Assembly (NCBI GenBank): GCA_964016885.1
Contig: OZ024750.1
Span: 20,956,001 to 21,020,000, forward strand
DNA from: Eledone cirrhosa
Taxonomy: Eukaryota
Reading direction: 5' to 3'
Length of the DNA stretch: 64,000 nucleotides
In this document: positions 21,340 to 60,722 of the stretch, piece by piece
Position numbering within the stretch: the stretch's first letter is position 1
How the letters are laid out: the number at the start of each line of letters is the position of its first letter
The notes under the pieces: model-generated
Told to the model about the DNA's origin: nothing
Seen by the model: only the letters and a program-made list of their open reading frames with translations
The model's database searches: none
Made by a program: the position numbers and the translations under genes

Positions 21340-21840
21340 AGACACACACATACATATATATATATATATTTACAGCATTCTGGCTTGGTTTGGCAAAATA
21401 CTTCGTATGAAATTTTGGAATGTTGTGCCTGACAAGTTGGATTAAATGATAGAAGATCAGAACAAAATGAGGACGCAGAGGATAAAATAATCCTTGGGAA
21501 TGTATCACAATACTCTGGCGGGGAGGTTTTAAGAATTAAACATAGCATTTAAACAACTATCTGGTTACGTAATTAACCTAGGAATGGGCTAGTTACATAA
21601 TCAATTATAAGGCTGATGTCAAGTTTAACTGGTGCATGTCTCGGAAAGTATAGCAACATATATATATATATTCAAAATAGAAACTTGGGCACCAGGAAAT
21701 AGGGTTGGCTTCAATTTTAACACGTGTTTATGCCCATTTGTTTCTGTTATGTATCGTTAACATGGCCTTTTATTAGAATATGTTCTGTTGTCAAACTTCG
21801 GAGAAGCTTATCTATATATATACATATATATATATATATA

Positions 21841-22341
21841 TTAGAATTGGAGCTCTGAAATAGCAATATATATATGAATGTATATATAATGTATTTTGCA
21901 ATACACTTTATGCTTAATTAAAAGCATTTTGAAGACCGTATGCTATTGTTTTAGAGTAGTGACAAACTCACTTACTTTAAATCTCAGCAAACAAGAGGAG
22001 ATAAGCCGACGAGGCCTTGTTTCGCATGTATTGATACTTATCAAGGCTAACTACTCCCTCCTGTATACTGAGATCACTGATGTTATATTCTTATAGAATT
22101 CTAGTAAATAATCAGGAACTGATTATACAGAGCGGTTGCCGGTAAGGCAGAAATTAAAAATTAGAATTGGAGCTCTGAAATAGCAATATATATATATGAA
22201 TGTATATATAATGTATTTTGCAATTTACTGAGATTAAAGTAAGTGGGTTTGTTACTACTCTAAAACAATAGCATACGGTCTTCAAAATGCTTTTAATTAA
22301 GCATAAAGTGTATTGCAAAATACATTATATATACATTCATA

Positions 22342-22342
<1 letters not shown>
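21841..22342 (-). mobile_element. Family D hammerhead element with both direct and inverted partial repeats
   Basis: Direct repeat 21841-21902 / 22161-22224 (~320 bp period); inverted copy 22225-22342 of ~21870-21991; TA flanks. Confidence 0.8.
22004..22048 (-). ncRNA. Hammerhead ribozyme with U3-A8 variant core
   Basis: Minus strand: AGCC-TTGATAA-GTAT(CAATAC)ATGC-GAAA-CAAGGCCTCGTC-GGCT; GUC triplet, palindromic AGGCCT stem III. Confidence 0.65.
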
Positions 22343-23342
<1,000 letters not shown>

Positions 23343-23736
23343 CAATGATATTAATAAATGGAAACTATATTTATGAAACCATATTTATTCTAGTATATAT
23401 ATTTCAAGGTTACAAACACTTTGGTACGCTCTCATCAGATAAAATACAAAGTTTGTTTTATAAATATTGACATATCCAGGAATGAGACCTTAAAGGTTCA
23501 AGTTTTGCCGTTAAGGTCTCATTCCTGGATATGTCAATATTTGTCAAACAAACTTTGTATTTTATCTGATGAGGGCGTACCAAAGTTTTGGTACCCTTCA
23601 TATATATATATATATATAATAGAATAAATATGGTTTAATAAATATAGTTTCCGTTTATCAATATCATTCTTATTATACTCAAGAAACATTGTATATATAA
23701 TTGTTGAATTACCAACAAATTAAATACCCCTTTGCT
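23343..23736. mobile_element. Family A-related diverged hammerhead element
   Basis: Arms ~23344-23493 / 23511-23668; shares AAATGGAAACTATATTTAT..AACCATATTTATT with family A; CTGATGA at 23566 (+) and 23432-23438 (-). Confidence 0.82.
23386..23446 (-). ncRNA. Hammerhead ribozyme, partly decayed
   Basis: Minus strand: TATTTTAT-CTGATGA-GAGCGTACCAAAGTGTTTGTAACCTT-GAAA-TATATATA-CTAGAATA. Core intact, stems I and II with mismatches. Confidence 0.65.
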
Positions 23737-43906: not shown

Positions 43907-44939
43907 GAGTTGATATAATGGTAGACAATAGTATCAATAACAACAACAAAAATTAATAATAAGAAGAATATTAATAAAACTGTGACGACATTAGTGGTGG
44001 TGATGATGGCAAAGATCTGCTTGCTACCCTACTAATTCTTTTGCATAAAAACAATAGATCCATCATTTCTGATCACCAAAACGTCTGCAAAATCCTATCC
44101 GTAGGCCTTTCTATTATGTAAATATATCAGTCTTACACACTATATATCATAATTCTTTTGAAAATGACTTCCTTGCCAGGCAGCTTTTACTCACATCTTT
44201 TTTTTTTCTTCTCAACATTCACTCAATACAACTATTAGAGATTTCTTACTATGTCATTCACACACTATTGTGTATAGACAGTAGAACATTGTATATTTTT
44301 CTAAACACAAACGTAATTTCTATTCAGCATTCCAAATGAAATTTCTGCTTTGCTATTGTGTAGTTGTCTTGAGGCTGCAACTATTTTCTTGACACAAATT
44401 TTCACACAAGGAACAGACGTAATCTATCAAGATCGAAAACACAAAAAAACATAAACGGACCTAAGGGAGTAAATTCTCGTCGTGATCAAATAATGGAAGG
44501 AGGATATGTTTGAAAATATACATGCATACCTATAGCACACATGTAAATATATATACGCTTATATGTATACTCAGGACGTTATATGAATGTATATAGCAAC
44601 ACGCATGTATGTACAAATATACACATGTAAATATGCAGGGACAAGCATACATACATACAAACATGTCTGCGCAAAATACATTCTCCCAATCACAAATATG
44701 TATAAACACAAATATGAACACACATGATGGGTTTGATAATGTGAATGAAATAAAGATTTCTTTGATTCTAAATGTATTCGAGTATGAAATATAAACATGC
44801 GCAACTTCCTTTCTTCTTTATATGGCATTGTCCCCGCCATATTGAAATCTAGTTTCAGAAATCTGGATTATATTGGGAAAATGTCTAATTCGGAACATAT
44901 TTATGCTTGTATATACCCAGTTGTCTGGTCATAACCATA

Positions 44940-45350
44940 TTCGTGTATGCTTCAGAGTCTTGGGCAATAACAGTGGTTCTGGAGAGAAGAATACAGGCTA
45001 TGAAGAGGAGATGTTTCAGACAGCTCCTTGTACCCCGTGCAGAGACCGCACCTCCAATGAGGAGGTGCTAAAAGGAATTTGGAAAGATATTGGGCCCTAC
45101 AAAGACCGGTTGGCCATTGAGAAAAAACGCAAATTGAGATGGTACAGGCACGTGAATAGTACAAGAAGGAAGAAAGAGAAGCAGACAGAAAACGAGATGA
45201 GAGGACAACATCCCGGAATGGACAAGCATGAAACTGCGTGCAACCATGAGGAAGGCGCAGAGGTGAGCGGAATGGAAGGAGCTGGTAAACAGGTCATCTG
45301 TGGCGCCCCAACGGTCCACCAGACTACGGGACTGATAAGAAGATAAGAAG
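44940..45350 (+). mobile_element. RTE-clade LINE 3' fragment
   Basis: RDRTSNEEV...IGPYKD.LAI.KKRKLRWYRHV and terminal GTGGCGCCCCAACGGTCCACCAGACTACGGGA followed by a short (TAAGAA) tail. Confidence 0.85.
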
Positions 45351-48860: not shown

Positions 48861-49755
48861 CGAGGTGGGCCAGAACAGTTCCAGGACTGATGTCACCAAA
48901 GATTTATTTCAAACCCAAACTTCCCACTAAGAGTTATCCACTTCAAAGTAATCCCCCTGGAGTCTAATGCACTTTTCCATCCTTTTCTGCCACGATTCCA
49001 TGCACTCCTGGAAGGATTCCTCCCGGATCCTCCGGAGTTCCGTCGTCACGGCATTTTTGATGTCGTCCACGTCTTTAAAACGGGTCCCCTCCGGGTCGTA
49101 CTCGAAGATTCATGATTCATTACCAATGATGACTGTCCCTAGCAAGTCTGGGTCGGTTTCAAGACGCTCGAGGATGTCCTGGCACACTTTCATGCGTCGA
49201 ACCTTCTGGTCATCGTTCAGCAGTTTTGGCACCATCTTCGCGCAGACTTTCCGCATGTCCAAATTTCAGTGAGAATCTTCCAGATGCTGTCCCGATTCAT
49301 GCCCAGCTCATTTGCCATCAGTCGAACAGTGAGCCGACGATCGCTGCGCACCATCTGCCTGACGCGCTCAACATTGATCTCAGTCCTGGTAGTTGAGGGC
49401 CTTCTGCTCCTGGGGTCATCTTCCACGTCCTTGCGTCCTTCTTTAAACCTCTTGCACCACTCAAAAACACGTGAGCGTAACATCGTCTCATCTCCATACA
49501 CTTACTGCAGCAATCTCAGTGCCTCTGGCGGAGTTTTCAAGTTTGTTCGTTGCTCTGTGCTCATTGCTTGACGACCTGAAACGGGGGATATTTATATAAA
49601 ATTATGAAGAAAAAAGTTTGATCGCTGCAGAAAGCTACGATTACAGTTACATACTCCAGGGGGATTACATTGAAGGAGAAAACTCTCAGTGTGTCGTTTT
49701 GGTTTGAAATAAATCTTTTGTGACATCAGTCTTGGAACTTTTCTGATACACCTCG
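48861..49755 (-). mobile_element. Mariner (Tc1/mariner) transposon, internally deleted
   Basis: ~100 bp imperfect TIRs (CGAGGTG..CAGAA.AGTTCCA.GACTGATGTCAC), TA at both ends; transposase HTH remnant YGDETMLRSRVFEWCKRFKEGRKDVEDDPRS.RPST at 49217-49501. Confidence 0.95.
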
Positions 49756-58606: not shown

Positions 58607-60722
58607 TTATGTAATATTCGGCTTGTAGTGGGAAAAAAGGGTTTTAGTTCTGTGACGGCAGAATAATGTTCGTTCAATTCTGTTATTCAGCAGTTTCTTC
58701 TTGTGTGTGATTATGTAATAAATCTCAAGATTACACAATTTGCAGAAATTTTGGCTCCTGGAAAAGCTTTGGGTTTTAGCTAATTTCTCCCATTTTAGGG
58801 TAAACTTTTGATTGCTATCCCTGAGCGTCCAAGCTTTTTCTGCTAAAGTTGTTACATTTCTTTGGCTCTGGTGTTTTATTGAGTAAGAATGCCTATACAA
58901 TCGAGATTTAAACGATGTTGCCGTTGATCCCACGTAATACCACTCGTTGCCTCCGGATTTAATGGTACACTTATAAATAATATTTTTTTCCAGGCAGTTA
59001 TTGCCGAGGGGGCAGTTGTCAGGATAGGTGCAGTTACAGTTGTGTACGTTGGGTTTTCTCTGGAGTAGTATTGCGGACGAACTTAGGTGTGGTTTATTTA
59101 TGTTCTGTAGTGTATTGTCTACTGTTTTTTGGGGGTTCTTTGTACTTAAGTTCTTAGTGTTTTCGTTTAACCTTCTAGTATTGATCTTTTTTATGTGTTG
59201 TTCAAGGTTTAACGCTGTAGAGTATGACAGTCTTATAGTGGTAGGGTTTAGGATTTTGTGGTATTTGTGTGATGTGGGAAAATGTCTTTTAATTATTTTA
59301 AAGAAGAGTACTGGTAAATTTGTACTAATGGAGCTATTGTATTCGGGGTTATACCATAAGTACTCTTTGCATCGCTTTCTATTAGTTTTGTTTGTTGGTT
59401 TACTGGTGTGCATACTATGGTAGTAAGTGTGGTTTGGTGTTGTGTTATTATATCTACCTATGTGGGATTTATTTTGGGTGTTTTGATTGTTCCCATCTAT
59501 GTACTCTATTTTGTTGAGGTAGCCTGCTTTACTAAGGGCGTTATCGTAGTACTCGGCGTGTTCCTTAAATACTTGTATGTTAGAAGATAGACCCGAGATT
59601 CTAAGGGAAATATTTTTAGGGATAGATTTAATTATAGAGATGGGGTGGTTAGACCCAACATTTACGTATTTGAGATTTTCATTCAATTTATGAAACGGTT
59701 TAATCAAACCAGAGTTTAAATTGAGTGTGACATCCAGGAAGTTAACTACTTTAAGGTTGTATTCATATGTTATAGTTAGTCCTATTTCGAGTAGTAGTTT
59801 TCTTATATCTTTGCGTAGTTTTTCTAGTTTTTGGTTATTAAGGTTTTTAGCTAGGAGGAGAACATCGTCGCGGTATATTCCGCCGTGGAGATTGCTGAAT
59901 TTTTCCTGGAGTCTAAAGGCGATAAATAACCCCACAATATCAGTTATTTCCGCCGAATCGTTAGAGCCCATTCTTATGTCAAAGTTAGAGGGTCTATCTT
60001 TACGTACCCAATAACTGTTCTCAAATTTGACTATAGTTTTCCTAGCTTCTAATATAATCTTAATTTCATCGTTTGTAAGGTCAGAGTTATCCTTAGCAAA
60101 CTTAATGGCTCTATTCAAAGTTTCAGGTGATATCGATGAGTAATATTCATCGATATCAAACTGGATAAACTTAGATTTATTCTTATTGCTAATGCTATTA
60201 AACCATCTTATTGCTTCTTGGGTCTTCCCCCAGAGTTTAATGTTAACCTTAGCCTTAATTTGGGGGATGATTCTATCTAAGATATATTTGCTTATTTTAC
60301 CTATATCTGATTTAGAGGGGCAGATTAATCTTATTTTAGGGTCATTATCAAAGTTTACCTTGTGGTCCTTAAGATTGAAGGTGGGTACCGCCGGTAAGAG
60401 TGGTCCTGTCCTATCTTCGATTCCGAGATTTTTCACTATTTCGCATGCCTCATCATTGATGTGCTTAAGGGTTACTTCACTCGTTTTTCTATATTTTTTA
60501 TGTAATTCTTTTCGAATGAACTTGTTGTATGTAGTGCAATCCATAGTGTACAGGTTTGATGTTTTGTCCGCTTTTACTACAATTCCTTTGGTGTTTTTAA
60601 GGTCGTCCAGTAGTTTTTTTTATATCTTTCTGTAATTTGCTGTTGGTGTTGCGTCCTTTGAATTTAATTTTAAGGATTAAGTTCATAAGGTCCTGCTCAA
60701 ATGCATCTAATAGTGGGTTGGT
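58607..60722 (-). CDS. Penelope-like reverse transcriptase + C-terminal GIY-YIG endonuclease (Naiad-type); 645 aa open from Met at 60544, homology continues upstream to the inversion junction
   Basis: Motifs: KADKTSNLY, RLICPSKSDIG, FIQFDIDEYYSSI, FDIRMGSNDSAEI, GIYRDD (catalytic), VNFLDVTLNL, SNHP, WYNP, CNC-x4-CPLxxxC, IIYKC...YYVGSTATSFKSR..H (GIY-YIG), CKLC...E, LN...CRH. The upstream LLDAFEQDLMNLILKIKF segment is out of frame by one extra A in an A8 run at ~60614-60621. Confidence 0.93.

Follow-up and report, generated by a model that had tools for sequence, protein, structure and literature searches.

The feature at positions 21842–22348 of the window (the whole 64,000-nucleotide stretch of Eledone cirrhosa DNA that was analysed) is a single insertion of a 319-bp non-coding repeat family into (TA)n, with two head-to-head arms that start from fixed sites 24 nt apart. 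The surrounding animal genome, 3.0 Gb in size, is rich in AT and in microsatellites. Its features very probably place the family among a known kind of element, the non-LTR retrozymes, as a previously undescribed member: tandem units within the ~150–450 bp range, one type I hammerhead per unit, no coding capacity or LTR arrangement, a dispersed multicopy distribution and, by prediction, a stable self-paired RNA fold. The insertions are likely to have been produced from a retrozyme RNA, predicted to self-cleave and circularise, that a Penelope-like reverse transcriptase (RT) copied from both cut DNA strands, a mechanism in which the circular template appears likely mainly on evidence from a sister family, family C.

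The window copy (Table 1; unit position = 22162 minus window position) is flanked on both sides by (TA)n tracts and carries 1 extra base relative to the 319-bp family monomer. Position 21842, the 3′ end of its monomer, corresponds to the distal start site (D) and abuts (TA)n, and the inverted arm, joined 5′-to-5′ to the long arm with a 1 nt overlap, ends 3′ at the proximal start site (P), likewise abutting (TA)n. No target-site duplication was readable in the right (TA)n tract of this copy; in non-LTR retrozymes such duplications, when present, are >4 bp. A previous sequence-only reading had reported a 62 bp direct repeat at ~320 bp spacing, which was recovered as a match of 21842–21902 with 22162–22224 at 61/63 positions, with one 2-nt gap and a spacing of 320, and an inverted arm of 118 bp, whose inversion was reproduced (22224–22342 is the reverse complement of 21872–21991 at 116/120 positions) but whose extent was too short, since the arm continues to 22348 (126 bp). 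The reported lack of an ORF was confirmed, as no stop-to-stop frame of at least 90 aa lies in 21842–22271 and the frames starting at or after 22272 are readings of the TA repeat. One hammerhead per unit, also proposed, applies to longer arrays elsewhere (spacings ~320) but not as a repeated feature to the window copy, which has one complete unit with one hammerhead and none in either the partial unit or the inverted arm. A monomer of ~320 nt and the assignment to retrozymes both hold, the monomer being 319/320. The predicted fold of the window monomer RNA beats 100/100 shuffles (z −6.5).

Table 1. Coordinates of the retrozyme insertion, its flanks and related elements (window positions unless a contig or locus is named).
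Feature	Position	Strand	Basis or remark
Left (TA)n target tract	21809..21841	.	
Complete monomer, unit positions 1-320	21842..22161	-	Repeat alignment; 320 bp
Internal AT run of unit, positions 287-296	21866..21875	-	About half of all arms terminate here
Type I hammerhead, U3-A8 core 22044-22038, 4-bp helix II, helix III with palindromic loop	22004..22048	-	Inspection and covariation
5′-truncated upstream unit, positions 260-320, head-to-tail register	22162..22224	-	Repeat alignment; 63 bp
Inverted arm, unit positions 171-296	22224..22348	+	Repeat alignment
Right (TA)n tract	22349..23345	.	~1 kb
Penelope-like element copy	58610-60619	-	
Inverted 5′-truncated partner of this copy	60725-61717	+	
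Sister retrozyme family C, 310/311 bp	G000, e.g. L205-L224, L302-L341 (C1:1239971-1244170 and others)		

The family was characterised from 116 loci: 40 were retrieved by a long DNA query, which favours long arms, 17 by either a short query or a pattern with a wrong setting, and 59 by the hammerhead pattern on contig C1. These loci are spread over many contigs and yielded 219 arms; the arrays consist of the unit only, and most array ends lie in (TA)n. Four subfamilies were distinguished, A (that of the window, 1.2% from its own column majority), B1, B2 and D, with a single subfamily within 83 of the 84 multi-segment loci, and further sister families are 78–82% identical (L009:2617-2854, L011:3087-3183, L019:856-1077), one of them with compensatory changes in helices II and III. 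What looked like a position-specific variant at unit 181/183 arose from gap placement within a T run, and the site was masked. Two sequencing runs of unspecified kind contain related sequence, which has no bearing on expression.

The window's families form short tandem arrays with a 319-bp period and up to 4.1 units per arm. Arm 5′ ends are scattered, and 184 of the 219 3′ ends fall at two sites 24 nt apart, 90 at unit 291–298 (site P, the internal AT run) and 94 at 315–320 (site D), the remaining 35 (10 of them in sister-family fragments) lying elsewhere. Nearly half of the arms (104/219) exceed 335 nt, 50 cross the predicted cleavage site at least twice and none of the 219 has its 3′ end there. 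A template longer than one cleaved linear monomer is needed: arms of more than one unit, repeated crossing of the cleavage site and the absence of ends at that site exclude a single cleaved linear monomer. Of the tandem arrays and circularly permuted copies anticipated from a circular template, the former are present and randomly permuted copies were not found among the examined loci. Fixed ends had been taken to point to an ordinary pseudo-LTR; the 3′ ends are indeed fixed, at two sites, but the 5′ ends vary, and fixed 3′ ends are expected from internal priming and are compatible with a circle.

The hammerhead was read by hand and predicts cleavage between 22008 and 22007, after unit position 154. 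No Rfam hammerhead model matched at the gathering score in the whole window or at E ≤ 10 in 21700–22400. The hammerhead pattern has 1,035 exact matches genome-wide, compared with 0 for the reversed control, an abundance that is not due to chance. In a comparison of seven natural copies, each from a different subfamily or sister family, the 13 hammerhead pairs are kept in 96.6% of cells, a level reached by 0/500 shuffles and well outside the 26–38% of slid controls, although the structure was drawn from the same seven sequences and the test therefore leans towards it. Ten of the 13 pairs show two-sided change, including the 3-8 pair (C3-G8 to U3-A8), and the letters at the cleavage site are conserved in 86/87 copies at each of unit positions 154 and 155. 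The minimum-energy fold hides the hammerhead core, with an opening cost of 4.5 kcal/mol in an intact copy and 13.3 kcal/mol in the window copy, which also has three private changes (unit 126, 134 and 151) in helices II and III that weaken the fold; on these grounds the window copy is probably a decayed one. The available parts of PMC4209133 and PMC3088659 describe the same U3-A8/C3-G8 covariation in nature and cite earlier work for its activity in vitro. In those accounts U3-A8 is known from minimal motifs of Schistosoma and others, whereas the present genome has both core states, in sister retrozyme families that are homologous to each other.

Head-to-head pairs are present at 76 of the 116 loci. 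The two arms combine one P and one D end in 53 of 59 classifiable pairs (a count that includes two near-duplicates, L109 and L111), compared with 50% if the ends were independent (p = 7e-11); the window copy is such a pair, and the proportion among pattern-chosen loci is 28/30. An inverted 5′ copy and a one-sided tail are known insertion features of Penelope-like elements (PMC8557442 and PMC3846280, as far as available), and inversion alone is consequently not evidence of circularity. Their origin is called unresolved in the accessible text of PMC8557442, and the accessible text of PMC3846280 proposes fold-back or self-priming for Penelope. Applied to the present family, such an origin would generate the inverted arm on the first copy with no second priming on RNA, and it would suit both the 1–7 nt overlaps seen at most arm–arm junctions and the 31 of 52 pairs, the window copy among them, in which the short arm is contained in the long one. 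In the other 21 pairs, however, neither arm contains the other, so that both must have been primed on RNA and simple fold-back is excluded for them, and in the 53 P + D pairs the second arm has its end at the fixed site that the first does not use; we therefore assign fold-back a vanishingly small probability. Double priming at two sites is, on these sequence comparisons, the well-supported reading. Stopping of one arm where its partner's primer sits was considered as an additional pattern and rejected (Fisher p 0.27, 0.03 and 0.012 for windows of 5, 8 and 10 nt in the window's families; not evident in family C).

Biochemical work on an anole Penelope-like RT in vitro (PMC11167929) provides a close parallel, with two adjacent internal start sites and with both target strands cut and extended. 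In that system no start-site difference was found between strands, whereas the two arms of the present family almost always use different sites. The anole enzyme also used uncleaved RNA, and hammerhead cleavage was not needed.

Evidence on the form of the template comes mainly from family C, which aligns with the window's family along the whole unit. It has a canonical core, a very short palindromic helix III and the same predicted architecture as family A, and is much younger, with ~1,000 or more very young head-to-head arrays whose arms reach at least 24 units. A block common to families A and C has 16,695 exact matches, and 1,006 exact family C D ends abut (TA)n. Among 20 loci (186 segments), 42 variants are present in all covering units, none in part of them and 19 in single units; 12 haplotypes were distinguished, and all 18 pairs are P + D. 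Forty further loci (448 segments), taken consecutively along C1 by D end with four hits in two close same-strand pairs skipped, gave 72 variants in all units (56 in both arms), 11 partial variants at 6 loci, 94 in single units and 22 haplotypes, with P + D in 32/33 pairs and one pair cut by the stretch end. Combined, array-wide variants outnumber partial ones 114 to 11 and 50/51 pairs use both ends. The haplotypes are separated by single steps, and the same haplotype is found at unlinked loci. From a one-unit change filling all units of both daughter arms we infer repeated copying from one monomer, for which a circle is the simplest template, and the family C pattern is best explained by repeated copying of a single monomer from two primers, as would happen on a circle. 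In the window's older families, the rate of variant sharing is 17.9% within the same arm and 14.7% across opposite arms of a locus, compared with 1.0% between loci, and sites covered at least three times carry 9 array-wide, 22 partial and 327 single variants. The circular or multimeric template proposed in the sequence-only reading is thus favoured, in its circular form, by the sister family; the window's own family is compatible with it but not decisive.

Uniform arrays might also be written from a linear template by the same element with the same double priming, the template being a long uncleaved transcript of internally uniform master arrays and circles, if made, being by-products. This would accommodate two family C loci with position-matched differences in both arms: at L337 both arms open with two units of one haplotype, followed by a different haplotype for 17 units, a pattern unexplained by a single circle, and at L321 the outer unit carries a variant in each of the two arms. 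Both are consistent with copying from a linear template or, alternatively, with nested insertion and conversion. Potential masters of at least 24 units exist (L302, L323), the excess of partial over array-wide variants in the older families points the same way, and uncleaved RNA was the main substrate of the Penelope-like RT in vitro (PMC11167929). Single-step haplotypes that are each fixed array-wide (the 12 and 22 above) nevertheless need repeated passage through one monomer, and copying with 5′ truncation would be expected to shorten arrays over generations. An A>G change at position 113 of family C is also all-or-none per array, with one exception (L312), rather than scattered, and we consider a linear template rather unlikely.

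Alternatively, arrays could have been short at insertion and later lengthened and evened by unequal crossover or gene conversion, or evened by assembler smoothing. The longest family C arrays do show block duplications after insertion, with block-spaced shared variants (L302, L303, L323), and in the older families partial sharing occurs between neighbouring or mirror units. Such processes would not readily place one haplotype at unlinked loci (L209 on C1, L221 on C4) or make a haplotype common to both inverted arms, and the youngest arrays are the longest and most uniform, which makes later homogenisation very unlikely as the main cause. Array uniformity was read from the assembly and smoothing could contribute to it, yet 113 single-unit variants in family C persist unhomogenised.

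The position 113 change lies in helix I in a UAG context, the preferred context of ADAR enzymes. It is array-wide at 6 loci on 6 backgrounds and never confined to a single unit; at L312, the first four units of one arm carry A and the remaining nine carry G. This recurrence may reflect editing of the RNA template. Taken over all array-wide variants, A>G changes show a small excess (8 A>G and 3 T>C sites, compared with 9 and 10 among single-unit variants), so that the editing case rests on one or two recurrent sites. Whatever its cause, the all-or-none pattern supports a single template molecule.

Active Penelope-like elements are present in the genome, and the window contains a copy of one of them with an inverted 5′-truncated partner (Table 1); elsewhere this element has a 785-aa ORF, in copies that are 99–100% identical. 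It has two 3′ ends 119 nt apart and follows the two-end rule of the retrozyme, with one of each in 3/3 examined pairs, a spacing that differs from the 24 nt of the retrozyme. Its ORF matched no Pfam family, and PF26215 is carried by many of its homologues; it has RWK, DKT and CxCX5C motifs, which are Hydra-clade motifs in the available text of PMC8557442. The window contains short inverted pairs with hammerhead-like cores at 23350–23700 and 10560–10770, probably (TA)n insertions of 5′-truncated ends from other Penelope-like families. Other fragments in the window, at 7822–8313 (−), 49220–49501 (−) and 44849–45346 (+), include a transposase-type helix-turn-helix (PF13565, just under the cut-off) and pieces with no Pfam match that resemble non-LTR retrotransposons.

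Because partial tandems, inverted 5′ copies, one-end tails and (TA)n targeting are known for Penelope-like elements (PMC8557442, PMC3846280, in the parts available), the copies could be regarded as truncated pseudo-LTR remnants of an autonomous element of this type. One locus offers apparent support, with a retrozyme arm whose 5′ end directly abuts an interrupted Penelope-like ORF in the same orientation (L006:1337-1341). That junction, however, lies inside the endonuclease region, 11 relatives of the element concerned have a different 3′ end, and either template switching or insertion could account for the arrangement. Where an arm continues beyond unit position 1 it enters the previous unit, up to 4.1 units, rather than a Penelope ORF, and reading frames upstream of retrozyme arms are heterogeneous at the examined loci. 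Continuation into a Penelope ORF had been named as the sign of an ordinary pseudo-LTR, and the unit was the end-repeat of an RT + GIY-YIG ORF at 0 of the 116 loci, a sample of the family. Among the best matches of six Penelope-like families, the 785-aa element of the window (30 loci) and five others (12, 10, 20, 15 and 20 loci), no homology to the retrozyme unit was found beyond AT runs and neighbouring retrozyme insertions, and a pseudo-LTR origin of the copies is highly improbable. A Penelope-like family with a U3-A8 hammerhead in its 3′ region (L247-L266), which we take from its motifs to be Neptune-like, shares the helix II stem of family A and is otherwise dissimilar. In Xenopus, kinship with a resident Penelope-like pseudo-LTR extends to 24 of 57 non-LTR retrozyme families or fewer.

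In the mechanism we consider likely, arrays would be transcribed, the hammerhead would release monomers and these would be ligated into circles. A Penelope-like endonuclease/RT would cut both strands of (TA)n, and the two cut strands would prime on the same circle, one from site P and the other from site D; the distance that each cDNA travels round the circle would vary, and the two cDNA ends would be joined through short microhomology. As a more tentative and broader proposal, which we hold to be possible though doubtful as a whole, each insertion may be the record of one RNA circle read by two RTs at once, each primed from one cut (TA)n strand at sites 24 nt apart. The head-to-head arms of Penelope-like insertions, and their tail on one side, would thereby have a general explanation, and A-to-I edits on the circle would be written into every repeat, with L312 perhaps caught in mid-copying.

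The metazoan non-LTR retrozymes described by Cervera and de la Pena 2020 (PMC7229834) and in bioRxiv 10.64898/2026.07.22.740005 likewise combine non-coding tandem units of 150–450 bp, each containing a single type I hammerhead, with a low GC content and strong self-pairing in predicted folds, and they coexist with Penelope-like elements, according to the available text of both. Their circles were shown by Northern blot, whereas the present family is known from genome sequence, and the present core differs in being U3-A8. Rolling copying from circles is proposed there, and the accessible part of the preprint makes the case for an origin of animal retrozymes from Penelope pseudo-LTRs and calls the evidence on the life cycle limited. 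Twin head-to-head arrays, two fixed start sites, (TA)n targeting and one haplotype per array are not described in the available parts of these two sources. Penelope-like insertions (PMC8557442, PMC3846280 and PMC11167929, the sources being available in part) share partial tandems, an inverted 5′-truncated copy, a short tail at one end and a (TA)n preference with the present family, which differs in having no ORF and a tail of 24 nt compared with 30–40. Non-autonomous elements of Chlamys such as MRC1 also form Penelope-type multicopy head-to-tail insertions but, in the available text of PMC8557442, as a rule show 3′-end similarity to an autonomous partner and in most cases have no canonical hammerhead, whereas no partner homology was found for the present family.

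In the openly accessible main texts covered, we found no report of one haplotype per array or of P/D pairing, and copying of retrozymes from circles is proposed rather than shown in the sources found, as far as their text was available. Some 1,000 young insertions are available in this genome, with a single haplotype throughout both arms and a separate start site for each arm. The family therefore provides a test system, with an RNA of 310–320 nt, a known target and a precise expectation of what an in vitro reaction should yield, and family C is a better subject for follow-up than the window copy. If the proposed mechanism is true, a eukaryotic RT would make kilobase concatemers from a small circle and integrate them.
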